NCBI GenBank assembly: GCA_030700155.1
Contig: JAUYJU010000027.1
Coordinates: 147,066-211,065, forward strand
DNA: 64,000 nucleotides
Direction of reading: 5' to 3'
Source of the DNA: Candidatus Nanoarchaeia archaeon
GTDB taxonomy: Archaea; Nanobdellota; Nanobdellia; SCGC-AAA011-G17; JAUYJU01
Below, piece by piece: positions 3,286-41,240 of this stretch. How positions within the stretch are numbered: position 1 is the stretch's first letter; each line of letters opens with the position of its first letter. The position numbers and the translations under genes were made by a program. A model generated the notes under the pieces. It was not told where the DNA came from. It was given only the letters and a program-made list of their open reading frames with translations, and did not search any database.

Positions 3286-6200
3286 CCAAACCACTTAACT
3301 AATCCTTCTTGTTTTTCTGGATCTTTTCCAAATACACTCTCAACCATTTCCTTAACCAATTCTAAACTTTGTTTTAAGTAAGCCGGTAAGTCATATTTTT
3401 TAGCAAGTTCTAAGCTGGGTTCTAAATATTTTACAACAGAGCCTTCAGCAACAGTAAATAATATCTTCCCACCACAATCACAAACTCCAGCAAGTGGCGG
3501 TCTCCTAAACTTCTCATTGCATTTCACACACCTAAACTCTTGTGTTGAGAACTTTCTTAAATTACCACGTATATCTCTTATGAAATGCCTCTCAATAACT
3601 AATCGTGCAACATCAGATTCATCAACAGCCCTTAATTTTTCAGCTATCGCCATTTGTCCTAAAACCTTTTCCTGCATAGTAGGTATTGATTTATATGCAG
3701 AACATAAAACTCCAGCATTTATGTCTGTGGTATCGTGAGTAAATCCAAAATCTGTGAATTGTTTATCAGACCCTAATAAATCTTTAACAATTGGGATTTT
3801 AACCTCCCAAGGACCTTTATATGCTAAAGCGGCTTCATATAGTTCTAAAGGATATTTAAAAGCTACATCCATATTGAAAACCATGTCATCAGCTTCTTTT
3901 GGAGTTAAAACAGAAGTCAAAACTAAGGGTTCATCTTGTTTGGCTCCACGATGCGCAGGCAAATATTTCTTTGAAAAATTCAAAAATGCATCCATCACCA
4001 ACATTATTCCAGCTTCATCGCCGTCACATCGAGTATTGATTATCTGATCTCCCCAAAGGATATTCCTATCTTCTTTACTCTTCCAATCTATCTCAACACA
4101 ATAAGAATTTTTATCATCTTCGACAATTTCAACTTTCTTAACATAATCTGCAAAGTAATCTGAAGCAGAAATCAAAGGAACTTGCTTATTGTTAAATTTG
4201 GTAAATCTCCCAACAGAATCCCTAATCATCAATAAAGAATCTTTCTTTGCAGTTCCACATTTCAGTAGATGATCTCGTAGTAAGCTGGCATCTTGTCCAG
4301 AAATAATTAAGTGGTGCAAAACGTGTTTCTTTGGTTCTTTATTTAGTCTTTTGTAAATATCTAAAACTGTTTTTCCGGGTAGTCTTGGTTTTGTTTTTAA
4401 ATATCTGCTAACTATGTTCAATTTAAGTAAGAGTAGCGCAATATCTTCAAGTAATGAATGACTGACCGAATAGAAGGCAATTAAATTTCTTGCGGTATTG
4501 ACTGTTCCATCTCCTTCAAAATAAGAGGCTAAAAAACTAAGGAGGTTCTGTTCATTTAAAGAAAACATAAAACTGGGGACTCTTTTATCATAAGCATTCT
4601 TCCCGGCACCAGTGGCCTTTAAAAGCAAATATAATAATTTATTAGTTATAGTAATCCTGCCATCAACTGCTTTTAAATTCTTATAATCAAAAAGAACATT
4701 CAATGAATTGATTAGCTTATCCTGCATTTTTTTATCGAACATTCTAAAGCTTACTTGACTCACCCATTTATTCGTCCTAGAGTACCCTTCAGAAAGATAA
4801 TAACCTAACATCTCACAAAATTCCTTAGTTATCTTAAGGTGCCTATCCAATTCAAATTCGCTAAATTTACATCTCAACTTTAAATCTCCAACATTTAGCT
4901 GTAGTTTTTCATAATCTTGTAAAGTTACATATTTGCTCCATCTTTGTAGCTCAGTAATCTCCCTTCCAAGAATCTGACAAAGTTTCTTTTTCCCAACGGA
5001 TTTTGCAAAATTATAAAAATCATAACTTTCAGAAGCAACTAAAATTTGTCTTTTCTCTGCATCTGACAACTTTTCAATAAATAGTTTAACCAAATCTATA
5101 CTTCCTTTCTGTTTAATTGGAATATTCAACTTATCAGAAACCGCAACTTTATCTCCAACTTTTGCATCAATCGCCTCTTTAAATTTAAAAGTTTTTGAAT
5201 CTTCACTCAAGTACATAAATTTATGAGTTGGCGTCATTACATATTCTCTATTTGTAGCAGTAGTAACTTTTACCCATTTTTTAGTTAAAGGTCCTTTGAC
5301 AAAATACTTAATTTTTTTATAGACTAATTCTCTTGTATCTGGATCAATTCCTAATGCAAACAAACATTTTTTACATTCCACTTTTAAAGTGCCAACGCCA
5401 TCAATCACTGAAGTTTTAGCCCCCTCTTTAAGTAAGTTTTCAACATAAGCACCAATATCTTCGTTCAATAACTCTTCTTTATCACAATCATAATAGACAA
5501 ATTTAGTTTTCGGATGTACACAATCTCTTCTCATCATAGAGTGTAAATAAGGGTGCGCATAAAATCCCTGTGTTTTTGAAAAACCAATAATTCTGCATAC
5601 AATTGCCGCGGTGGTGTGTGGACTTAATCCTAAAGCCAAATGTCCAACCAAGTCTAATTTATTCTTTAGTTTATAATAAGGTGGTAAATTATATACTTTA
5701 ATAAGAAGTTCATCAATGAAGTTACAAACTCTAAACAAAACTTCAGCTGCGTTCTCTTCTAAACTGTCTGGACAAGCAGGTAATACAATATCCTGGGGCT
5801 TGATAACTAAAATTTGTTCATCATTTTCTAAAGGCTTTCCATATACATCCTTAATGTAACCTAATTCCTTCAATCTCTGCACAGAAGTTCCAATTTCTTT
5901 TGGTTTGAAGTGGGTTATAGTTGTTTCAGTCATGTCATATCTTATTGTTCCATCTTTATTGACGTACAAATTATGTTTAGCCCTTAAAATTCCTTTAACT
6001 AATTGCTCTGGTACATGGCCCTCATTACTAGTTCCCCTTACCCCCTTTATTAATTCTGGATAAGTGTTTGTCTCTAGTTTCAAAAGTGCCCTATTAAAAT
6101 AATGATTAATGTCTAATTTCTTTTTTGAATAAGAAAAAGTTTTTTCATGGCAATTTTTATTTTCTGTTTTTTTATTACATATGGCACAGAAAAATAATTG

Positions 6201-30465: not shown

Positions 30466-31290
30466 ATGGATAAAAAAGAGGTTATTCAGAAAGTCCAGAC
30501 AGAGCTCAAAATTCAGGGAAAAAGTCCAAGAACCCAAAGGATGTATACTTTTTTCAATGAAAATTTCTTAGATTTTATTAAAAAGTCTCCAGACTCAGTA
30601 ATCCAGGATGACATTAAATCCTTCTTCGCTTATCTTTTATCAGACAAAAAATATAATGCTTCTTCAGTTGCATTAGCAAGATGCGCATTACGTTTTTGTT
30701 ATGATGAAATATTGGGAAAAAATATTGTAACTAATATAAAAACTCCAAAATTTCAAAGAAAAATCCCAGAAATTCCATCTAAAACAGAGATTAGATTAAT
30801 GTTAGACCATTCCAAGAACTTAAAAAATAAAATAATGATAGAATTTCTTTACTCTTCAGGCTTAAGAGTTTCAGAATTAGCAAATCTAAAAATAAAAGAT
30901 TTAAATCTAGAGGAAAAAACCGGTTTATTAAAATCCGGAAAGGGTGGAAAAGATAGATTTTTCATAATGTCGGAGTTATTAGTTAAAGATTTAAAAGAAT
31001 ATTTAAAAAATCATAAAGAAGAATATTTATTAATTGGTTTTGACGGCCCAATTTCAACTAGGTCCATACAAAAATCAATTCAAAGAACTGCAAAAAGAGC
31101 AAACATACAAAAGAAAATTTATCCGCATCTACTAAGGCACGCTTTTGCAACGCATTTATTAGAGGATGGTGTAGATATAAGGCATATTCAGGTTTTGCTT
31201 GCGCATTCAAATCTTCAAACTACTGCTTGGTATACTCAAGTTTCAACAAAAGAATTAAAAAAGATTAAAAGTCCTTTAGATACAATTTAA
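30466..31290 (+). CDS. Tyrosine recombinase/integrase (XerC/D-like)
   Basis: N-terminal SAM-like domain. Catalytic R...HxxR...Y signature: HLLRHAFATHLL and LLAHSNLQTTAWYTQV. Confidence 0.8.
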   Translation: MDKKEVIQKVQTELKIQGKSPRTQRMYTFFNENFLDFIKKSPDSVIQDDIKSFFAYLLSDKKYNASSVALARCALRFCYDEILGKNIVTNIKTPKFQRKIPEIPSKTEIRLMLDHSKNLKNKIMIEFLYSSGLRVSELANLKIKDLNLEEKTGLLKSGKGGKDRFFIMSELLVKDLKEYLKNHKEEYLLIGFDGPISTRSIQKSIQRTAKRANIQKKIYPHLLRHAFATHLLEDGVDIRHIQVLLAHSNLQTTAWYTQVSTKELKKIKSPLDTI

Positions 31291-32003: not shown

Positions 32004-32156
32004 TTATTCAATTGCTAATATTCTTTAAATACCTTTCCATAAAACTCAGTTTTGCATAAAACATTAAATCCTTAAAGGTTCTTTAATATATAGTTTCTAA
32101 CCGTTGCCACCTTGCCAACTACACCACAAAAGTACTTATAAATAAAATTACCTCCT

Positions 32157-32846
32157 ATGAGAATGAATGTAAGATTAGCGGAACTTTTTGGAGCAATGAT
32201 GGGAGATGGTTGTTTATCTTTAATTAACAACAAATCAGAAAATAGAAAAAGAAAAATAGCTCTTCTAACGGGACATTTAAAACACGATTACAATTATTAT
32301 ACTAGAGTAATTCAACCAATAGTCAAGGAAAATTTTAAGATAAATGGTTATATCAAAAAACGCGAAAAAAGAAATTGTATTTATTATGAAATAGGTGGAG
32401 TCGTATTTGACTTTCTAAATAATGAAGGATTTCCCATAGGGTTAAAAACCAAACTTTTTATACCTCAAAAAATTTTAAGAAAACGTCAATTAGCTAGGGC
32501 ATGTGTAAGGGGCATTTTTAATACCGCTGGAACTATTTATCGAAGATATAGAAAAAAATATAACAAACATCCAAAAATCTACAACTATCAAGTTATTCAA
32601 TTTAAATTAAACAGTAAAAGAACAATAAAACAAATTAAAGGTGTACTTGACAGGATCAATATTAATTCAAATAGAATTATTAGGGATAAGAAAAGTTATG
32701 TACTTAGAATAACGGACCAAACAGGCATTAAAAAATTCATGGAAAAAATCCGTCCAAGTAATAATTACCACGTAGAAAGATATATAAATCATATTTCAGA
32801 CATTTCTGACAAAGGGCTCGTAGCTCAGCCTGGTCAGAGCACTTGA
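32157..32846 (+). CDS. Free-standing LAGLIDADG homing endonuclease
   Basis: The N-terminal LAELFGAMMGDGCLS is a canonical LAGLIDADG motif. A second degenerate copy is LARACVRGIFNTAGTI. The annotated 3' end overlaps the 5' part of the downstream tRNA. Confidence 0.6.
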   Translation: MRMNVRLAELFGAMMGDGCLSLINNKSENRKRKIALLTGHLKHDYNYYTRVIQPIVKENFKINGYIKKREKRNCIYYEIGGVVFDFLNNEGFPIGLKTKLFIPQKILRKRQLARACVRGIFNTAGTIYRRYRKKYNKHPKIYNYQVIQFKLNSKRTIKQIKGVLDRININSNRIIRDKKSYVLRITDQTGIKKFMEKIRPSNNYHVERYINHISDISDKGLVAQPGQST

Positions 32847-32927
32847 AAGTCTTAAAGGCTTGGTGAAGCTCTTATGCCATCAGACGGAGCGACCAAGGGG
32901 TCGAGGGTTCGAATCCCTCCGAGCCCG
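32814..32927 (+). tRNA. tRNA gene about 40 nt longer than canonical (intron or introns likely, possibly at non-canonical positions). Anticodon not assigned
   Basis: Acceptor GGGCTCG pairs with CGAGCCC. D-arm GCTC-AGCCTGGTCA-GAGC. T-arm GAGGG-TTCGAAT-CCCTC. There is extra sequence between the D-arm and the variable region. I could not fold a canonical 7-nt anticodon loop with U33 by hand. Confidence 0.55.
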
Positions 32928-32985: not shown

Positions 32986-33822
32986 ATGGACAAAGAAACT
33001 TACTTAATTTTTCATAATGTAGATGGAAGCGTATCCCACTTAAAGAACCTACTGAATATGGAAGCAAATAAATATTATTGCTTAGGAAATTTAGTTAAAA
33101 AAGAAATTAAATTTGGATCAGATTTAGAAGAAAGTTTTGAATGTTTAGATATTTTTAGAAGAAAAAATAATGGAATATTATTTACAGGAGAAGCTGAAAG
33201 AAACTTGGTAAATATGATTTATGATAAAGAAAGCCAACACAAAAGTTTAATCAACACTTTAATTGAAAAACCAGATATTGAACATTTACAAAAAGGAAGA
33301 ACAGTTTCCTGCATTAAAGCTATTGGAACTTATTTTATGCCAAAAGCACCGAATAATTCATTTAAGGCTGAAGATTGGGATGAAAACTGGAGCAACCACG
33401 ACGAAATTTTAAAAGAATCAAGAAAAAACCAAAAAATAGAAGCTTGCGATTTAGAGAGAGCAGAGCTTTATGATTCTTATGAGGAGATTATACTCTCATT
33501 AATGGATTACCTAGTATGGCCGCAAGAAAGAGATTATCCAAGGTATTCATTTTTCTTTATGGGAAATAGATACGAAAATGCAATGTGGAAAAAAGTTAGT
33601 GGGGATTTAAAATTATTCTCAACTTCAACAAATCAACCCGAGATAATGAAAATTATGCTAAACCAAAAGGAAGGGCCACACATAATTACTCCAGGGTCTG
33701 CAAAACATGGACTTTTCTGCAGATTTACTATTCCAGATATGAAACTAGAACTATTCAGCGAGCCAGATTTTAGAGAAACAAGGGAAATTAAAAAGATAGG
33801 ATTTAAAAAGAAATTACCTTAA
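32986..33822 (+). CDS. Hypothetical protein
   Basis: 278-aa ORF with no recognisable motif. Confidence 0.3.
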   Translation: MDKETYLIFHNVDGSVSHLKNLLNMEANKYYCLGNLVKKEIKFGSDLEESFECLDIFRRKNNGILFTGEAERNLVNMIYDKESQHKSLINTLIEKPDIEHLQKGRTVSCIKAIGTYFMPKAPNNSFKAEDWDENWSNHDEILKESRKNQKIEACDLERAELYDSYEEIILSLMDYLVWPQERDYPRYSFFFMGNRYENAMWKKVSGDLKLFSTSTNQPEIMKIMLNQKEGPHIITPGSAKHGLFCRFTIPDMKLELFSEPDFRETREIKKIGFKKKLP

Positions 33823-34662
33823 TATATCATAGAAAACATCAAAGATTGGTTTTTCTGTAGATACAGCATAGAATTTTGCACCAGTTTCAGCACATGCTTC
33901 TTTTATATTATGTTGATGTTCTTCTAATTTTGTAAAATATCTCTTTCTTAAAAAAGGCCCTATAAAAGTTCTTAATATAGAACTTGTTTCTAAATCCTTT
34001 AATTTATAATCCCCTTCAATATTTAATTTAGATTCAGTTTTATCCAAAACTTGAATTAATTTTACATCATTCCTTTTAAATCTATAAAGAACATTTTTAA
34101 TTTCTTCAATATCATACAAGAAATCAGACACAATTACAATCAAAGATTTTGAATCAACAAATTTTTTATATTTGGATAAAGATACACCCAATTTCGAAGT
34201 ACCAATTGGTCTTTTTTTATTTAAGTAATCAAAAACTTTCATCAACTGACCTTTACCCTTTTGAGCTTTAAACACCTCAAGTTTATCTGAAAAAGTAGAT
34301 ATGACAAACTTTTCATTATTTTTCAGAGCCATATACGCAAAACCCATAGCAAGCATACCAGAATAACTTGATTTTTTGAAAGGCTTTCCAAAATCCATGC
34401 TTGCGCTCATGTCAAGGACAACATGAACAGTTAAATTTCTTTCAGCTTCAAATTTTCTTACAAAGAGATCGTCAGTTCTAGCATAAACTCTCCAATCTAT
34501 ATTTTTTATATCATCTCCTGGAGCATAAATTCTATGGTCTTTAAAAAGCAAACCTTCACCAGCAAATTCAGATTGTCTCTCCCCAACATAATTAGAGGTA
34601 ACTCTTTTATTGATTATTAAGCTAAGTTTATCCAAATGTCTAAGAAACTCTAAATCAATCAT
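33814..34662 (-). CDS. DUF58-family protein (vWA-like) of the MoxR operon
   Basis: The motif FKDHRIYAPGDDIKNIDWRVYART and a DxSxS-like VVLDMSASMDF. It overlaps the moxR gene. Confidence 0.6.
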   Translation of the reverse strand: MIDLEFLRHLDKLSLIINKRVTSNYVGERQSEFAGEGLLFKDHRIYAPGDDIKNIDWRVYARTDDLFVRKFEAERNLTVHVVLDMSASMDFGKPFKKSSYSGMLAMGFAYMALKNNEKFVISTFSDKLEVFKAQKGKGQLMKVFDYLNKKRPIGTSKLGVSLSKYKKFVDSKSLIVIVSDFLYDIEEIKNVLYRFKRNDVKLIQVLDKTESKLNIEGDYKLKDLETSSILRTFIGPFLRKRYFTKLEEHQHNIKEACAETGAKFYAVSTEKPIFDVFYDILR

Positions 34663-35594
34663 TTTAACAGTTTTTGAATAACATCATCCTCATTCATATT
34701 ATTCCTTTCAGCCTCAAAACTCAAGATTATCCTATGTCTTAATACAGCTGGCGCAATATAATTTATATCCTCTTTACTAACATAATTTCTTCCTTCAATA
34801 AGCGCATTTGCTTTAGCAGCTAAGATTACTCCTATTGAGGCCCTTGGAGAAGCACCGTACTGTATCAGATCTTTCTTTTGTCTAGTTCTTGCAATTAGAT
34901 CAACAGCATATTTTTTTAAATCATTTGAAACAGGAACCTGTCTTGTCAATTTTTGTAAATAATTTATATGTTCCTTGCTCAGTACAGGTTTTAATATAAC
35001 ACTTTCACCTTCTTCAGTATATTGATTGACAATTTCAATTTCCTCTCCAAAAGTTGGATAATCGGCTTTAATTTTTAACAAGAAACGATCAGATTGAGCT
35101 TCAGGTAATTGGAACGTTCCCTCTTGTTCAATTGGGTTTTGTGTTGCCAAAACAAAAAATGGTTTGTCTAACTTAAAAGTTTTATTTCCAACAGTAACTT
35201 GTTTTTCCTGCATAGCTTCTAATAATGCAGACTGAGATTTTGGTGTTGCCCTATTTATTTCATCAGCAAGTACAATATTTGCAAAAACTGGTCCTTCCTG
35301 AAATTTAAATTCCCTATGTCCATGACCTTTTTCTTCTAAAATATAAGTTCCTGTAATATCTGATGGCATTAAGTCGGGAGTATTTTGTATTCTAGAAAAT
35401 TTCAAACCCATTAAACTTGAAAGAGTCCTAACAGCCAAAGTTTTAGCAAGTCCAGGATAACCTTCAACTAAAGCGTGAGAATCAGCAAGCATGGCTATTA
35501 ACATTTGTTTGATCATTTCTTTTTGACCAATAACAACTTTACCCGCTTCTCTAAAAACCTGATCAAGATGAACTTTAACCTCTTGTGCTTTCAT
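34659..35594 (-). CDS. MoxR-family AAA+ ATPase
   Basis: Walker A GYPGLAKT, Walker B VLADEINR, and the sensor ATQNP. Confidence 0.85.
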   Translation of the reverse strand: MKAQEVKVHLDQVFREAGKVVIGQKEMIKQMLIAMLADSHALVEGYPGLAKTLAVRTLSSLMGLKFSRIQNTPDLMPSDITGTYILEEKGHGHREFKFQEGPVFANIVLADEINRATPKSQSALLEAMQEKQVTVGNKTFKLDKPFFVLATQNPIEQEGTFQLPEAQSDRFLLKIKADYPTFGEEIEIVNQYTEEGESVILKPVLSKEHINYLQKLTRQVPVSNDLKKYAVDLIARTRQKKDLIQYGASPRASIGVILAAKANALIEGRNYVSKEDINYIAPAVLRHRIILSFEAERNNMNEDDVIQKLLK

Positions 35595-35595
35595 T

Positions 35596-36378
35596 TTAAT
35601 TTGCTCCAGTTATGCTCTCATAATAATTTTTCACTATTTCTTGATTTTCTTTTGAGATTCTCTCATTATAAGATGAATCTGTGGTAGCATATATATCTTG
35701 CGGAAATTGTTCATTAAATTCCTTATTTTCTACATCACTTACTTTATTTATATTTATACCGCTTGCAGCCGTATCTAAAGTAAGGTCAATCTCTTCCAAA
35801 CCAAGCTCCGCAACAGACTCTTCCCCATATATGTTTTCATCGCCTTCTTCAAAGCCTATTTCAGTTATGTTGCCAAAAATACTTCTCTGCTCTTCCCCTA
35901 TAAGGTTGCTTACGCCTTCCACAGCCTCTTTCCAGCCGATTATTGCAAAATTAGAAGCAGAAGAGAGTATAACCAAAAAAGACATTATTGATATAAAGAA
36001 TATTTTAGTGAATAACTTTTTATCCCCAAGAAAAGCTCCGGTGTTTACATATTTAACGTCACGCAACACATCATCATTCAAACTCCTAATCAATTCATTA
36101 TCCCTTCCAAGATTATCCGCTACTGTTCTCAATCTTTCTTTTAATTTAGGTACTCTTTTCTCAACATACCTATAGTTTATACTACGTATCTTTCTTCTTC
36201 CAAATACTACAAAATAAACAAAGAAAGGAATTAAGGCATAATAACCCGGAATTTTAAAAAGTATAAATAGTAAACAAAAAACTAAAAAAACTAAAACAGA
36301 ATCTATAAAATTTGTAAACAAAGTAACAAATAATACAAGTTTCTTTATTTCAGCTAACGCCCTTACTAATGCTTTCAT
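35596..36378 (-). CDS. Membrane protein of the MoxR/vWA operon
   Basis: Several TM helices. Adjacent to moxR. Confidence 0.3.
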   Translation of the reverse strand: MKALVRALAEIKKLVLFVTLFTNFIDSVLVFLVFCLLFILFKIPGYYALIPFFVYFVVFGRRKIRSINYRYVEKRVPKLKERLRTVADNLGRDNELIRSLNDDVLRDVKYVNTGAFLGDKKLFTKIFFISIMSFLVILSSASNFAIIGWKEAVEGVSNLIGEEQRSIFGNITEIGFEEGDENIYGEESVAELGLEEIDLTLDTAASGININKVSDVENKEFNEQFPQDIYATTDSSYNERISKENQEIVKNYYESITGAN

Positions 36379-36383
36379 TAAGT

Positions 36384-36968
36384 TTAAGACCCCGCAAGTT
36401 GTTGTTTTAGATCATCATTATCATCTTCTAATTTGCGGATGGTAGCTTCAAGTTTGTCTATCTCTGATTGTAAATCTGCATTCTCACTTTGTAAAAGTTT
36501 TATTTTATCTTTCAGCTCATCCTTTTCACTTTTAACATCTTCAAAAACATCTTCCAATTCATTTTCACGCTTTTCTTTTACCTGAAGATCTGTTTGCAAT
36601 TTATTCAGATTATTTTCTCTTTCTAATAAGTCAGCTTTGACTTTATCAAGTTCAACAACTTTAGCTGTAAAGTCTTCATTGATATTATTTAATTTACTTT
36701 GATAAAAAGTCGTTGTTCCAAGCAAACCAGCAGTAACGACAACCACAATCATCAATAAGAAAAAACTTGAATCGGTTTTGATGTATTTATTATTCAAACT
36801 AAATTTAACTTTATGTGTTTCTGGATCTACTAAAGAATCTTTAAGACTAGGTTCTGATTTTTTAATATGTTTATCAGCACTAGCTTCTCTTAATCTTTCT
36901 ATTTCTCTTTGTATTTTCTTTATTTTCCTTTCCTGTAGTTTAACTGTTAATTTATTTAGGAAGCCCAT
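36384..36968 (-). CDS. Coiled-coil membrane protein
   Basis: One TM helix followed by a long heptad-repeat coiled coil. Confidence 0.3.
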   Translation of the reverse strand: MGFLNKLTVKLQERKIKKIQREIERLREASADKHIKKSEPSLKDSLVDPETHKVKFSLNNKYIKTDSSFFLLMIVVVVTAGLLGTTTFYQSKLNNINEDFTAKVVELDKVKADLLERENNLNKLQTDLQVKEKRENELEDVFEDVKSEKDELKDKIKLLQSENADLQSEIDKLEATIRKLEDDNDDLKQQLAGS

Positions 36969-36969
36969 G

Positions 36970-39414
36970 TTAATATTGTCTTTGTCTGCTCCATCTCTTA
37001 TTTTCAGCTATTCTTCTTACACATATCTCAAATAATAAGATTACTATGGCAGCCAATATAAATGGCCATCTGAAGTATTTCCTATCATCTAAAGTCCTTC
37101 TGGATTGAGACCTAATGGCATTTACCATGCCCTCAAGGTCATTTTCTTCAAACATTAAGCCACCAGTGCTTTGTACTATACTTGTAAGTTGTTCATTTAA
37201 GCTTACACCCTCATATTCTTTCGGATAATTAACTGCAAAAGTAGCTCCAATTAATGAATGGAATCCCGTAGCATCAATTTCAATAGTTCCTTTATACAAA
37301 TCTTCTCCAAACTTATAAAATGCCACACCATCAGCAGCAGGTTGTTTATCTTCCTTCACAGTTATTTCAACACCTTCACCAACTCGCGTATCTTGTATAT
37401 CCACAAATCTATCTAAATTTCTTTCAGGATCTCCTATTACCCAGTTCATTGTTCTAGTTATTAATTTCGAATTCTTTTTATTTAATAATTCTCCTGCCCA
37501 CTTAGATCCATCATCTGTTGATAACAAAGCAACTCTTCCAAGCCCATATCTCCAAACAGTCAATAAAGGCTCACCAGTATCAGTTGTAATCAATAATTGG
37601 GCAGTTGATTTAGGTATAACTTGATTAAATCCAGTTACACTTGCGCTTAATTCCAAATCAGATGTAATGAAATGATTATCATTTAAAACTACAACCAAAA
37701 AATCACTTCCTGCTGGTTTCTTTCCAGAAGAATCGCCAAACAACACATTAATTTTCTGTGGAGATTCTAAACCTTTGAAAAATAATGCACTTTCAACACA
37801 AGAATCTGCAATTGCATTATACAATAATTGTGCACCATAACCTACAGCATGTTCTGATCCACATTCATGTTTACTAATCGGGGTTTCTTCAACACTTATG
37901 AAGATTACTTTAATCCCTTTCTCATCAGCAAGTTTAACATAATTTGTAGTTGCTTGTGAACCACCAGATTTACCATCAGATATTAATATCAAATTTTTAT
38001 TTCCAGGAACATTTTCTAGCATTTCAATTGCCTTAGCTACACCAACAGGAACATAAGTATTACCCAAATCTTGAATTGCTTTTATTTTACTCTCAAGTTC
38101 AGCACGTTTTTGCCCCAAGGGAGAAAGATCTGAAACAGTATAAACTTTAGTATTAAAACCAATAACTCCAACATTGCTGTTATCTCCAATGTTACTTAAG
38201 GCGCTCAAAGCTAATGCTTTTTCAACATCAGATGCACTGTCTTGACCAAATGCTTCAGACGTACTTGTGGAGATGTCTATTGCAATAACCACATTCATTT
38301 TTTCTCCTTCATCTTCTTTAGCGCCAGAAACAAAAGAAGGCAATAATGATTCAATTAAAGATCCCTTGTAAAATCCTTTATCCAAAGAAGTTTGTCCACC
38401 TACAACTAGTAAACCATTGCCTTCAGAGATATAATCTCCTAGACTACTTACAGAAGAAGCTAGATTATCTGCATGAATATCATTTATTACAACAGCATGC
38501 ATGCTTTGATAATTTGATAAGAAATCAAGTTTATTTGTAACATAAAGTTCATCCAATATAACTTTCATTGGACTATCCTTATCACTATAAAATCCAATTT
38601 TTGGTTTTTCAACTACTTTTATTGTTTTATAATAAACATTATTTTGTGAAAAATGATCTTTATCTAATATTCTTGCAGTAATTTTATGATAACCAGAACT
38701 AAAACTCTTGCTTATAGTTACACTGTCTCTAACTTGTCCTTCGTATGCTTTTTCTCCATCAACTTCAACTAAAATATTCCTTGTGGTAGTTCCATCAAGA
38801 ATAATAGTATAAGTACTTTCAACATCAGCACTTATTTTGGTAGGCCCAACTACTTTTATGCTTGAATCATCTTTCTTTGGTTTCAAGTTGACTACATTTA
38901 AGGTTGCATTAATTCTTTTGGCATAAAGACCTATATCGCCTAAAGCTGAACCATAATTGTTATTCCCATCAGTAATTAATAAAATACTTTCATCTCTTTC
39001 CATATTCCTTAATAAAGCATCGCCCAAAGCAGTCCTATTTTCTTCACCAAATTGCTTGTATTCAACTTCGACATAATTTTCTAATTGTTCTTTCAAATTA
39101 GGCCCCACATTTTGATCAAATAGACTAAATGAAGTAGAATTATCCACCAAAATTTTTACAAAAGGATCTCCCTGTATGGTTGTAGATTCTAAAGAAAAAG
39201 GAGAGGCCATAGCAATTAAGATTAAAAAGAAAATTAGCGTTCTTGTTAGTAATATAAATCTTCTTTCTTTTCTTCTTGGTCTAGTATCACTAAAAATTAT
39301 AAAATCTTTCTTTATCAATGCCATTAATACAAAGAAGATAGGGATAATCAATAACAACAGCAAAGGTCTCTCTAATAAGCTAAATTCTTTCAGTAAGTTT
39401 GCAAAGTCTTGCAA
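36970..39414 (-). CDS. Membrane-anchored von Willebrand factor A domain protein (BatA/BatB-like)
   Basis: N-terminal TM helices, the MIDAS motif VVIAIDISTSTS, and a C-terminal TM. Confidence 0.6.
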   Translation of the reverse strand: MQDFANLLKEFSLLERPLLLLLIIPIFFVLMALIKKDFIIFSDTRPRRKERRFILLTRTLIFFLILIAMASPFSLESTTIQGDPFVKILVDNSTSFSLFDQNVGPNLKEQLENYVEVEYKQFGEENRTALGDALLRNMERDESILLITDGNNNYGSALGDIGLYAKRINATLNVVNLKPKKDDSSIKVVGPTKISADVESTYTIILDGTTTRNILVEVDGEKAYEGQVRDSVTISKSFSSGYHKITARILDKDHFSQNNVYYKTIKVVEKPKIGFYSDKDSPMKVILDELYVTNKLDFLSNYQSMHAVVINDIHADNLASSVSSLGDYISEGNGLLVVGGQTSLDKGFYKGSLIESLLPSFVSGAKEDEGEKMNVVIAIDISTSTSEAFGQDSASDVEKALALSALSNIGDNSNVGVIGFNTKVYTVSDLSPLGQKRAELESKIKAIQDLGNTYVPVGVAKAIEMLENVPGNKNLILISDGKSGGSQATTNYVKLADEKGIKVIFISVEETPISKHECGSEHAVGYGAQLLYNAIADSCVESALFFKGLESPQKINVLFGDSSGKKPAGSDFLVVVLNDNHFITSDLELSASVTGFNQVIPKSTAQLLITTDTGEPLLTVWRYGLGRVALLSTDDGSKWAGELLNKKNSKLITRTMNWVIGDPERNLDRFVDIQDTRVGEGVEITVKEDKQPAADGVAFYKFGEDLYKGTIEIDATGFHSLIGATFAVNYPKEYEGVSLNEQLTSIVQSTGGLMFEENDLEGMVNAIRSQSRRTLDDRKYFRWPFILAAIVILLFEICVRRIAENKRWSRQRQY

Positions 39415-39434
39415 GGAATTTAATTGTATAGCGA

Positions 39435-41240
39435 TTATAAATCACCCCTAGTTTTTATATATAAAATTTCTAAAAATAATAATACTGCTATTATAGTAAG
39501 TAATTCCATTTCTAAATTTTTAGGAACGTTTTCTTTACCCTTTTCTATCTTAATCTCTTGTACATTTTTCTTCTCTTCACCACCAAGATTAATATTAGAT
39601 TCCTTTTCACTTATTAAATTGGCAGCAATTTTTCTATTGCCTATTGTATAAACTCCTATTTGATCAAACACAAAAGCGCCACTATCTATAATTCCCTCAG
39701 GAGTTCTAATGTTTTGATTTTCTTCTAAAATTAAACTATCGCCAGTTCTTACATTAAGTAAAGAAATATCATCTTGATTAGTTAAAAACTTTAAGGAGTT
39801 TATCCAATAAATTGGATAGTAAGGGCTTAATTTGAAATCCCCGCCTTCATCCATAATACCATAATACAATACATTACCGCTTCCTAATCTACTAAAAGAA
39901 ATTACTGGCGCACCTTCAGCAGATATAACTGTTATTGCTTCATCTTTTGATTCAGCACCAAAATATTTATCAACCCTTCCAAATTCAACATCCCTTGTAA
40001 ACATTGTGGCTTGCTCAACATTTAATACAGCTTTCCCTCTCTCACTCAATATTTTAACAGGTAATAAATTTTGATAAGATATTCTTCCCATATTTGGTTG
40101 CGCATTAATGATTAAATTAGCTCCTGCACTAACTTTTTGTTCTATTTCAGAGAAAGTACCCGTAATTATGCTATTGGGATCAACATTATCTACCACATAG
40201 ACATCATAATCCCCGCTTGGAATTATTGGTGGTTCTGCAATTTCTAATGTAACGTAACTTGCAGACGTCAGAGCAGATTTTAAGAATACAGATTCCGAAT
40301 TAGTAATCAGCAAAACTTTTATTGTTCTGTCTTCTGGAGCGCTAACATAAGCAACATTATCTACCAAAAAATCATCCTTTTCTAAAATCTCTAGTTTTGT
40401 TATGCCATTAGGTGTTTTAAAGGAAAAAGGTTCAACGCTTTCAGATTGTATATAAATTTGTTTTGTAGTTCCTTCAATTTTCAAGTTAATCGTCTTATCT
40501 TTTTGATCAAAATTCTTTACAAAGACAGTAGTTGACTCATCTTCCACATCTAAATCAATTATACCCACATTATTTTTTTTAGAAGTTCCAGAAAGATCTA
40601 TGAACTCAACACTCAAACCCCGAGATCTTAAAGCATTCGCAGCAATTACAGGATCTGCACCTTCAGTATTTTTAAAATCACTTAAAACAAAAACTTTTCC
40701 TTTGTTCCCTAAAACTTCTCCAGCAAGTAATATTGATTCACCTATTTTTGATCTTTCATCACTAACTTTCAACATTCTTAATCTATCTTGTGCCTCTCCT
40801 TTATTTCCATCCTTCAATAAAATTTCAGGAGCACTTCTTGCAAGAACAATTGTATTTTTAGAACCTAATAATCTTTCAGCTTCAGACATTGCTAAATCAA
40901 ACCTTGTATTACCTAATTCTTTTACTTGAGAACTTGCGCTAACATCGATTACAATTGCAACGTTATCTGAGATTACATCAGCACTAACCCAAGTATAAGG
41001 ACCAAGTAAAAATAAAGATAGTAAACTTAATAATAATAATTGAAGTAAAAATAAAGGATCCTTTATAAAATTTCTTAAGAATGATTTTCTTTTATCTGCT
41101 CCAGTAGTTTGCATGAAAAACATCAAAGAAGGAATTGACATTTCTTTGGGTCTTGGTCTTATCAGGTAAAGGATAACAAGTGGAATCAAACTTAAAAAAG
41201 CATACCATCCCAAAGGGTTAGTTATCCCAAATGAAGCCAT
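39435..41240 (-). CDS. Membrane-anchored vWA-domain protein (Bat-like)
   Basis: N-terminal TM helices, the MIDAS motif VAIVIDVSASS, and a C-terminal TM. Confidence 0.5.
   Translation of the reverse strand: MASFGITNPLGWYAFLSLIPLVILYLIRPRPKEMSIPSLMFFMQTTGADKRKSFLRNFIKDPLFLLQLLLLSLLSLFLLGPYTWVSADVISDNVAIVIDVSASSQVKELGNTRFDLAMSEAERLLGSKNTIVLARSAPEILLKDGNKGEAQDRLRMLKVSDERSKIGESILLAGEVLGNKGKVFVLSDFKNTEGADPVIAANALRSRGLSVEFIDLSGTSKKNNVGIIDLDVEDESTTVFVKNFDQKDKTINLKIEGTTKQIYIQSESVEPFSFKTPNGITKLEILEKDDFLVDNVAYVSAPEDRTIKVLLITNSESVFLKSALTSASYVTLEIAEPPIIPSGDYDVYVVDNVDPNSIITGTFSEIEQKVSAGANLIINAQPNMGRISYQNLLPVKILSERGKAVLNVEQATMFTRDVEFGRVDKYFGAESKDEAITVISAEGAPVISFSRLGSGNVLYYGIMDEGGDFKLSPYYPIYWINSLKFLTNQDDISLLNVRTGDSLILEENQNIRTPEGIIDSGAFVFDQIGVYTIGNRKIAANLISEKESNINLGGEEKKNVQEIKIEKGKENVPKNLEMELLTIIAVLLFLEILYIKTRGDL

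Follow-up and report, generated by a model that had tools for sequence, protein, structure and literature searches.

The stretch of DNA analysed here, hereafter the window, covers 64,000 nt of contig JAUYJU010000027.1 from a Candidatus Nanoarchaeia archaeon, and contains a tRNA-Lys(CUU) gene interrupted by two bulge-helix-bulge (BHB) introns, preceded on the same strand by a free-standing gene coding for a LAGLIDADG protein. We consider it probable that the locus associates a functional two-intron tRNA-Lys(CUU) gene with a free-standing homing endonuclease that has this tRNA gene as its special target. The splice junctions of the tRNA are confirmed by intronless orthologues, the endonuclease gene is absent from the same place in four syntenic relatives, and its homologues stand beside tRNA genes whose identity follows the protein clades. 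The original prediction, made from the letters of the window, had described a LAGLIDADG open reading frame (ORF) running into a tRNA gene with extra sequence. The features on which the text relies are listed below in window coordinates.

32047..32813, + strand: stretch of about 770 nt bearing the endonuclease gene, where syntenic relatives have about 34 nt instead (alignment with L091, L089 and L090, plus L092 and L093)
32135..32148, + strand: TATA-like element CTTATAAATAAAAT just 5' of the ORF start, a candidate promoter of a near-leaderless mRNA, proposed from reading of the sequence
32157..32846, + strand: free-standing two-motif LAGLIDADG endonuclease gene, 229 aa (Pfam LAGLIDADG_3, AlphaFold model, Foldseek)
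32205..32207, + strand: codon for Asp17, the catalytic acidic residue of motif 1 (GAMMGDGCL), kept (family alignment)
32526..32528, + strand: codon GCT for Ala124, in the second catalytic Asp column of the family (family alignment)
32775..32789, + strand: box GAAAGATATATAAAT, resembling a transcription factor B recognition element (BRE) followed by a TATA box, 25-39 nt upstream of the tRNA +1 and inside the ORF, where it encodes E-R-Y-I-N (comparison of loci)
32814..32927, + strand: tRNA-Lys(CUU) gene of 114 nt with three exons and two BHB introns (Rfam RF00005, ARAGORN on the spliced product)
32814..32845, + strand: exon 1, with the acceptor 5' strand, the D arm and anticodon-stem positions 27-30 (exact BLAST match of the predicted mature tRNA)
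32846..32867, + strand: intron 1, 22 nt (AAAGTCTTAAAGGCTTGGTGAA), at the non-canonical position 30/31 (strict helix-bulge-helix-bulge-helix, or hBHBh', motif)
32868..32874, + strand: exon 2, GCTCTTA, with position 31 and anticodon-loop positions 32-37 (splice model)
32875..32891, + strand: intron 2, 17 nt (TGCCATCAGACGGAGCG), at the canonical position 37/38 (BHB motif after removal of intron 1)
32892..32927, + strand: exon 3, with position 38, the anticodon-stem 3' strand, the variable loop, the T arm, the acceptor 3' strand and the discriminator G (BLAST, splice model)

The tRNA-Lys(CUU) gene and its two introns

The Rfam tRNA model RF00005 matched 32814..32927 on the + strand over its full length (model positions 1-71) with 51.4 bits, for a gathering score of 29, and with an E of 4e-8 across the whole window, leaving a 48-nt block in the anticodon arm unaligned. 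The acceptor, D and T arms are canonical, as had been noted earlier, and the extra sequence, then put at about 40 nt, amounts to 39 nt (114 nt minus the 75 nt of the spliced product), all of it between the D arm and the variable loop, where 56 nt must shrink to a 17-nt anticodon arm. When every single 39-nt deletion was tried, none yielded a 5-bp stem and a 7-nt loop with U33 and a purine at position 37, in agreement with the earlier statement that one intron at 37/38 would not suffice. An exhaustive test of two-segment deletions gave 22 solutions meeting minimal anticodon-arm rules, and each of them was scored for the archaeal splice signal, defined as a 4-bp helix lying between two 3-nt bulges, the cut falling after the second bulge base. 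Only one of the 22 solutions, the one that produces Lys(CUU), showed complete (4/4) central BHB helices at both introns. The original prediction had left the choice between two introns and a non-canonically placed one; both turned out to be true.

Both introns exhibited a complete 4-bp central helix flanked by 3-nt bulges. In intron 1, CACT (32840-43) pairs with GGTG (32862-65) between the bulges TG|A (32844-46) and AA|G (32866-68), with an outer helix AGAG/CTCT and an inner helix of 6 bp, giving a BHB score of (4,4,6) for the central, outer and inner base pairs; a motif of at least this quality was obtained in 13 of 2000 shuffles. Intron 2, evaluated with intron 1 removed, has a score of (4,5,1), its central helix being CTCT/GGAG, its bulges TA|T and CG|A, its outer helix the 5 bp of the anticodon stem and its inner helix weak or relaxed. 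The spliced 75-mer folds into a canonical cloverleaf whose 7-nt anticodon loop has U33 and a purine at 37, and the anticodon CTT corresponds to 32871-32873 within exon 2. The exons have a GC content of 63%, compared with 33% for the genome, and CCA is not encoded at the 3' end of the gene.

Comparison with homologous genes supported the two junctions independently. The intron at 30/31 is present in 14 homologous, endonuclease-linked tRNA-Lys(CUU) genes of other genomes of the DPANN archaea (Diapherotrites, Parvarchaeota, Aenigmarchaeota, Nanoarchaeota, Nanohaloarchaeota), and in all 14 it shows a 4-bp central helix with the AGAG/CTCT outer helix; the central helix covaries among them (CACT/GGTG, CGGC/GCCG, CGGA/TCCG, CAGC/GCTG, CGGT/GCCG). 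At the same locus in L091, the nearest of the relatives that were found, the tRNA-Lys(CUU) gene is intronless and identical to the spliced product of the window at 73 of 75 positions, the differences being confined to the D loop, and intron 1 is missing from the orthologues of L091, L089 and L092 alike. The relatives L089 and L090 have identical tRNA-Lys exons with no intron in the former and two, at 30/31 and 37/38, in the latter, so that the L090 gene minus its introns is the L089 gene base for base. The window introns can be recognised as homologues of the introns of L090 and L011. Because the intronless orthologues and the covarying homologues confirm the junctions, the window tRNA can be regarded, on sequence grounds, as a real gene with two BHB introns, neither a standard single-intron tRNA nor a pseudogene.

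ARAGORN, which had been suggested as a check, identified the gene once the introns were removed: default mode called no tRNA at the locus, intron mode proposed a His(ATG) tRNA, a wrong model in which a long extra arm is spurious, and the spliced 75-mer was called tRNA-Lys(ctt) with every stem paired. The His model was overruled by the BHB and orthologue evidence, and for the same reason calls of Ser, Asp or Leu for homologous genes were treated as mis-calls. Other tRNA-Lys(CUU) genes are more heavily interrupted. At least three introns were seen in L024 (=L014) at 4648-4868, L030/L031 at 2466-2674 and L016 at about 4675-4925 (- strand), with long insertions of 100-170 nt in the T loop or the D loop; these genes fall below the Rfam gathering score and would therefore be reported missing from the corresponding metagenome-assembled genomes (MAGs). 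The relatives L089 and L090 also carry, after the tRNA-Lys, a tRNA-Ala(CGC) gene (about 3725-3811 and 1-76, respectively, both on the - strand), which is interrupted by a 15-nt intron in L089 and uninterrupted in L090. This is the reverse of the tRNA-Lys pattern, and each gene of the two-tRNA locus thus has its own variation in intron content among close relatives; no tRNA-Ala is present at this locus in the window.

The LAGLIDADG gene and its insertion beside the tRNA

The ORF at 32157-32846, whose protein begins MRMNVRLAELFGAMMGDGCLS, matched Pfam LAGLIDADG_3 with an E of 3.9e-7, above the curated cut-off, which substantiates the earlier reading of the gene. A profile of 48 homologues matched PI-PfuI, I-DmoI and I-Tsp061I in the PDB. 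The AlphaFold model has a mean predicted local distance difference test (pLDDT) score of 92.2 and a predicted template modelling (pTM) score of 0.88, and Foldseek aligned it with I-DmoI, I-Tsp061I, PI-PfuI and the TliVMA intein endonuclease, all with probability 1.0. The two LAGLIDADG motifs (residues 7-21 and about 113-127) lie in one chain with a duplicated alpha-beta-beta-alpha-beta-beta-alpha fold, and the predicted structure is that of a two-domain, I-DmoI-like LAGLIDADG enzyme. No helix-turn-helix (HTH) domain was detected in the Pfam scan or in the model of the window protein. The homologues form 58 clusters at 40-62% identity. When searched against 1.84 billion representatives, the family profile retrieved 77 proteins at E<=1e-30 and 1903 at E<=1e-10; many related proteins of 310-380 aa (e.g. 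P0213, P0215, P0219) carry the two-motif core at residues of about 120-330, behind an N-terminal extension of about 120 aa.

In the family consensus, motif 1 ends in GDG and motif 2 in TDG, with both Asp residues conserved in at least 90% of the members, and TDG was found in nearly all ORFs of the Lys clade with a readable motif 2. The window copy departs from this pattern, its motif 2 reading RGIFNTAGT for a consensus of RGIFDTDGS, so that an acidic residue closing each motif is a property of the family which fails at Ala124 in the window. Monomeric LAGLIDADG enzymes deprived of one of their catalytic acidic residues make double-strand cuts far less efficiently or not at all. Since its second catalytic Asp is lost, the window copy is probably a nickase or an inactive, decaying enzyme. 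The Logan contig L001 encodes a protein identical to that of the window, and a contig of the organism was seen in SRR13727534.

The stop codon TGA lies at 32844-32846, inside the tRNA that starts at 32814, which gives the 33-nt overlap noticed in the original prediction. The stop codon also coincides with the 5' bulge (TG|A) of the intron 1 BHB motif, probably by chance. A BRE/TATA-like box AAAGRTATWTAAAT was found 25-39 nt before the tRNA +1 in the majority of 26 loci that were compared, among them some without an endonuclease and some with the tRNA on the opposite strand. By analogy with known archaeal promoter architecture, the box at 32775-32789 would be the promoter of the tRNA. The conserved C-terminal ERYLN motif of the endonuclease family is this box in translation, and in many homologues the C-terminus goes on to translate the tRNA 5' end (GPLAQ... 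= GGGCCCTTAGCTCAG) or stops at the TAG of the tRNA U8-A9-G10; the last 23 or so codons of the ORF thus cross the putative tRNA promoter, the leader and the first 30 nt of the tRNA. The overlap may be a by-product of tight packing, and a functional role seems unlikely.

Related genomes with the tRNA and without the endonuclease gene, which had been proposed as the comparison to make, were found through exact-protein look-ups of the contigs encoding the closest homologues of the neighbouring PAC2 protein. Four syntenic relatives (L091, L089, L090 and L092/L093) lack the endonuclease gene. Their PAC2 proteins are 91%, 70%, 72% and 69% identical to that of the window, respectively, and those of L089 and L090 are 84% identical to each other. 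L089 shows the full order Xer, PAC2 / tRNA-Lys / ORF, DUF58, MoxR, of which the shorter contigs show parts. Window and relatives are similar up to ...TTTCCATAAA (about 32046) and again from the TATA box or the tRNA onwards, and the spacing between PAC2 and the tRNA in the endonuclease-less relatives is only about 80 nt. A more distant locus with the same neighbourhood, L013 (PAC2 53% identical), has the endonuclease gene beside an intronless tRNA. The PAC2-anchored scan of metagenome contigs gave only five loci, in which a non-homologous ORF occupies the site. For PAC2, more than 2100 homologue clusters were counted (E<=1e-40), compared with 58 for the endonuclease. Because it is absent from syntenic relatives and restricted to few clusters, the endonuclease gene appears from these alignments to be sporadic and locally polymorphic, as expected of a mobile element.

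The two characters, endonuclease and introns, do not travel as one. Both are absent from L091, L089 and L092 and both are present in the window; L090 has the introns alone, and L013 and L042 the endonuclease alone. Window and L091 thus differ by the joint presence or absence of the endonuclease and both introns, yet the other loci separate them.

Beyond the tRNA, positions 33814-41240 (- strand) hold a DUF58, MoxR AAA+, DUF7502, VWA and BatA-like cluster (Bat/MoxR-type operon), which stays beside the tRNA locus in the relatives; farther along come genes for SerRS and topoisomerase I and a RadB-like gene. No Pfam match was obtained for eight ORFs at 18.5-29.8 kb, including one of 1329 aa.

Linkage of the family to tRNA genes and its possible causes

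The vicinity of a tRNA gene is a property of the whole family. In seven metagenomic homologue loci, each with a different neighbourhood, the gene abuts a tRNA-Lys(CUU) with zero to at least three introns. A scan of one genome per GTDB species gave 66 homologue loci from Woesearchaeota, Pacearchaeota, Micrarchaeota, Iainarchaeia and Aenigmatarchaeota, with single hits in Thaumarchaeota and Asgard archaea; three of them are inteins and two are cut by contig ends, leaving 61 evaluable loci. After curation, a complete tRNA gene was located within about 160 nt of the ORF in 57 of the 61, at the ORF 3' end in 55 cases and about 70 nt before the ORF start in two, and one locus (22% identity) had no tRNA nearby. 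The gap between ORF end and tRNA ranged from -117 to +59 nt in the 51 curated loci measured. With the strict finder, a tRNA was present at most 130 nt from the 3' end of 40/60 endonuclease ORFs and of 18/423 other ORFs (Fisher p = 1.6e-29). A long-range relaxed finder meant for T-loop introns produced too many false pairs in AT-rich DNA, and the strict finder, Rfam and inspection were used.

Protein clustering showed clades in one-to-one correspondence with the tRNA identity, namely Lys (CUU, rarely UUU), Gly(UCC), Ala(GGC/CGC), Asp(GUC) and CAU. The tRNA occurs in three arrangements, following the ORF on the same or on the opposite strand or preceding it; what remains constant across loci is its proximity, not a shared transcript. 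Introns were more frequent in tRNAs adjacent to an endonuclease (32/45) than in non-adjacent ones (8/21, p = 0.015).

Some loci of the scan deserve a separate description. Partial tRNA copies occur at three of them. L043 (about 590-760) has only the 3' part of a tRNA-Lys(CUU), from the end of the D-arm intron, on a contig that ends inside the ORF, and L028 (about 4682-4800) has only the 5' two-thirds, with the T arm missing; both could be split, very-long-intron or decayed genes. In L072, the endonuclease gene (3935-4621) lies between a complete three-intron tRNA(CAU) at 3618-3778, 157 nt upstream of the ORF, and a partial duplicate of the tRNA 3' end at about 4633-4693 with the same acceptor strand CCTCCGGCA, which may be the footprint of a recombination or insertion event. 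The tRNA(CAU) genes linked to the CAU clade (L083 c4618-4791, L079 c4603-4778, L081 c4630-4786, L074 c4615-4764, L077 3668-3844, L072 3618-3778) share a conserved intron of about 60 nt after the anticodon loop with box C/D-like elements (..GAGCGATGAGGC..GCCGATGATTAA..CTGAGAG). An intron-encoded C/D guide RNA is known for archaeal tRNA-Trp, and from its sequence elements the tRNA(CAU) intron looks like one. Two bins labelled as candidate phyla radiation (CPR), L030 (Candidatus Peregrinibacteria) and L045 (Candidatus Falkowbacteria), contain the endonuclease with an archaeal-type BHB-intron tRNA-Lys; L030 differs very little from L031, which belongs to a Micrarchaeota bin, and the contigs L030 and L045 are probably mis-binned.

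A homing cycle at the tRNA gene would account for the locus in the following way. The pre-tRNA would be transcribed from its own BRE/TATA box, and the three exons freed by the splicing endonuclease at the two BHB motifs would be joined by an RNA ligase. No EndA was present among the 24 window ORFs scanned with Pfam, and neither EndA nor RtcB among the 20 neighbouring ORFs. In genomes devoid of the endonuclease, the enzyme would recognise a long site in the conserved tRNA-Lys(CUU) gene, and the break would be repaired from the endonuclease-bearing allele, a repair that would copy the endonuclease gene, often with the neighbouring tRNA allele and its introns, into the recipient. L091, L089 and L092 would represent the susceptible allele, the window the invaded one and, through Ala124, also the decaying one, and L090 an allele which has lost the endonuclease and kept the introns; the window copy would be a recent arrival at the locus on the decay branch of the cycle. 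Both introns, as well as an alternative D-arm intron of other lineages (the type of L027), fall within tRNA positions of about 22-38, where introns could split a 20-bp target. L013, with endonuclease and no introns, has a swapped 30:40 base pair beside the 30/31 site.

Several points weigh against this reading. Only the linkage designates the tRNA gene as the likely target, and an ancient vertical linkage with frequent loss could also yield the correspondence between clades and tRNAs. Without its second catalytic Asp, the enzyme of the window may do nothing. The endonuclease and the introns are not strictly coupled, all four combinations being found, the intron enrichment in adjacent tRNAs is only moderate, and most endonuclease-linked tRNA-Ala and several tRNA-Gly genes have no introns. 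The tRNA exons of the window look native, with acceptor and T stems identical to those of L091, so that a whole-allele replacement from a distant donor is not evident. A scan of viral contigs gave no relatives that could act as vectors. A strict rule by which introns confer immunity was also considered and does not fit the four combinations.

An unlikely alternative is that the LAGLIDADG protein is a domesticated, non-mobile factor binding DNA or RNA and kept beside the tRNA for co-regulation, for instance a WhiA-like regulator, a factor specific to the tRNA gene or a maturase-like protein assisting multi-intron pre-tRNAs in their folding or splicing. WhiA is a bacterial transcription factor derived from LAGLIDADG proteins, which has lost the catalytic residues and carries a C-terminal HTH domain. 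The window protein has a weak Pfam match to the WhiA LAGLIDADG-like domain (E 5e-6), with a WhiA structure at Foldseek rank 40; its ORF has stayed intact despite the missing catalytic Asp, the tRNA-adjacent gene order is kept across several DPANN phyla, and adjacent tRNAs are the richer in introns. Against this, the family retains both catalytic Asp residues, unlike WhiA, and the window protein has only 229 aa and no HTH domain. Moreover, the four closest syntenic relatives keep their tRNA, with or without introns, in the absence of the endonuclease gene, the distribution is patchy when set against that of PAC2, and the endonuclease also occurs beside intronless tRNAs (L013, L042 and many Ala and Gly loci).

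The original prediction had suggested an intron-derived mobile history, and here mobility and intron origin have to be separated. The first is strongly favoured by the four relatives without the ORF and by the tRNA linkage of the family. The second, in which the endonuclease once resided inside an intron of the tRNA or another BHB intron and was later left outside by rearrangement, is improbable. The closest solved structures are indeed archaeal intron-encoded (I-DmoI, I-Tsp061I) and intein endonucleases, and partial tRNA copies flank the endonuclease in L072, L043 and L028. On the other hand, the ORF lay inside an intron in none of about 60 homologous loci, and L072, the only apparent intron-encoded case, was ruled out on inspection by its complete upstream tRNA and duplicated 3' fragment downstream. 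In the window the insert is upstream of the tRNA promoter, not within the gene, a search for duplicated tRNA-Lys fragments found none, and the ORF is contained in neither an intron nor an intein, which agrees with its earlier description as free-standing.

A very unlikely explanation makes the adjacency a by-product of integrase-type elements using tRNA genes as attachment (att) sites, with the endonuclease as cargo. A tyrosine recombinase (Xer-type) is encoded at 30466-31290, 0.9 kb upstream, tRNA genes classically serve as att sites in archaea, and one proposal derives tRNA introns from integrase elements (PMC3293823). This reading is largely refuted: Xer and PAC2 occupy the same place in the endonuclease-less L089 and L090, the recombinase being for that reason considered chromosomal, the window search revealed no att-like repeat or duplicated tRNA segment, the insert is small, a single gene on about 770 nt, and many neighbourhoods without an integrase, unrelated to one another, show the same linkage. 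A tRNA decayed into a pseudogene, or a sequence resembling a tRNA by chance, would make the ORF overlap meaningless and the silence of ARAGORN in default mode understandable; this explanation is already refuted by the comparative sequence data and has a negligible chance of being right, given the perfect cloverleaf left by removal of the two BHB-bounded segments, the near-identity of the exons to the L091 orthologue, the same two introns in L090 and L011, the high exon GC and a promoter box at the standard distance.

If the homing endonuclease is indeed dedicated to the tRNA gene, a broader picture may be proposed, tentatively, in which a guild of undescribed free-standing, tRNA-dedicated LAGLIDADG endonucleases attacks tRNA genes in DPANN archaea and, through the gene conversion that follows, drives a rapid turnover (gain, loss and repositioning) of non-canonical BHB introns and of tRNA fragments, the introns serving as immunity. 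Its clades might be dedicated to Lys-CUU, Gly-UCC, Ala, Asp-GUC or CAU, with occasional members elsewhere, as in a Thaumarchaeota MAG, although we regard this as a possibility less favoured than its contrary. No description of tRNA-linked free-standing LAGLIDADG genes was found in the literature, the coverage of which was incomplete and gives no proof of novelty. Such a guild, if real, would parallel collaborative homing in archaea and would explain by a concrete mechanism how disrupted archaeal tRNA genes arose, a matter of long debate.

How archaeal tRNA genes came to be split or to contain multiple, oddly placed introns is an open question, for which the locus offers a testable alternative agent to integrating plasmids and viruses, an endonuclease family tied physically and phylogenetically to specific tRNA genes. 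The feature of the window is modest when taken alone; the family-level pattern and the natural allele series make the question directly testable. The intronless and two-intron alleles with identical exons constitute a natural substrate pair for biochemistry, and the family, if active, would be a set of tRNA-gene-specific meganucleases. In addition, a tRNA-Lys(CUU) missed or mis-typed by a standard finder, as here, affects estimates of MAG completeness and codon usage.

Comparison with known systems

Both components of the locus belong to kinds already known, multi-intron BHB tRNAs in DPANN archaea on the one hand and LAGLIDADG endonucleases on the other. Multi-intron tRNA genes with non-canonical BHB introns have been described in Thermoproteales, in Micrarchaeota/ARMAN (archaeal Richmond Mine acidophilic nanoorganisms) and in other DPANN archaea (PMC4090602, PMC4033280), together with the broad-specificity epsilon2 EndA (PMC3239211). 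Like them, the window tRNA has short hBHBh' introns, one at 37/38 and one at a non-canonical position in the anticodon stem, and is missed or mis-called by standard tRNA finders. It is not unusual in kind; what is new is the natural confirmation of the junctions by intronless orthologues and the polymorphism of zero versus two introns between relatives with identical exons (L089, L090).

The window protein shares with I-DmoI and I-Tsp061I, encoded in rRNA introns, and with the intein PI-PfuI the two-domain fold, the two LAGLIDADG helices and, in the family consensus, the catalytic Asp/Glu closing each motif. The identity is only 15-20%, and the window copy has Ala at the second catalytic position. 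Unlike these enzymes, its gene is free-standing and lies beside a tRNA rather than an rRNA or protein gene; unlike the intron-encoded I-DmoI/I-PorI type, the ORF is upstream of the tRNA, whose introns of 22 and 17 nt are too small to hold it. The resemblance to WhiA is limited to the weak profile and structural similarity in the LAGLIDADG-like domain, and the endonuclease family differs from it in keeping both Asp residues and in having no HTH. By the features checked, the intron-encoded and WhiA-like classes are excluded.

Models of archaeal tRNA disruption (Randau & Soll hypothesis; Sugahara et al. 2012) call upon integrases and att sites, with little direct evidence (PMC3293823). The present locus resembles them in that tRNA loci are hot spots of strain-level intron heterogeneity, for which a mobile element is proposed as driver or selective pressure. 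It differs from them in having a homing endonuclease as the linked mobile gene and in showing no att duplication.

The free-standing homing endonucleases of T-even phages form the Seg and Mob families, SegB being located within the T4 tRNA gene cluster. Collaborative homing, by which an ORF-less intron is mobilised with a neighbouring free-standing endonuclease, was reportedly described by Bonocora & Shub and by Zeng et al., both in 2009. An example of it is the mobE/I-TevIII pair (PMC2790892). Like the Seg and Mob genes, the window endonuclease gene is intergenic beside a conserved gene and is present or absent between close relatives, and, as in collaborative homing, ORF-less introns lie nearby which could interrupt the target site. 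It differs from the phage enzymes in being of the LAGLIDADG and not the GIY-YIG or HNH type, in residing on an archaeal chromosome and not in a phage, and in being accompanied by BHB instead of group I introns. Unlike in collaborative homing, the endonuclease and the introns are not strictly coupled. With these differences, the free-standing Seg/Mob endonucleases and collaborative homing would provide the closest functional analogy to the association of a LAGLIDADG gene with the tRNA-Lys(CUU) gene.

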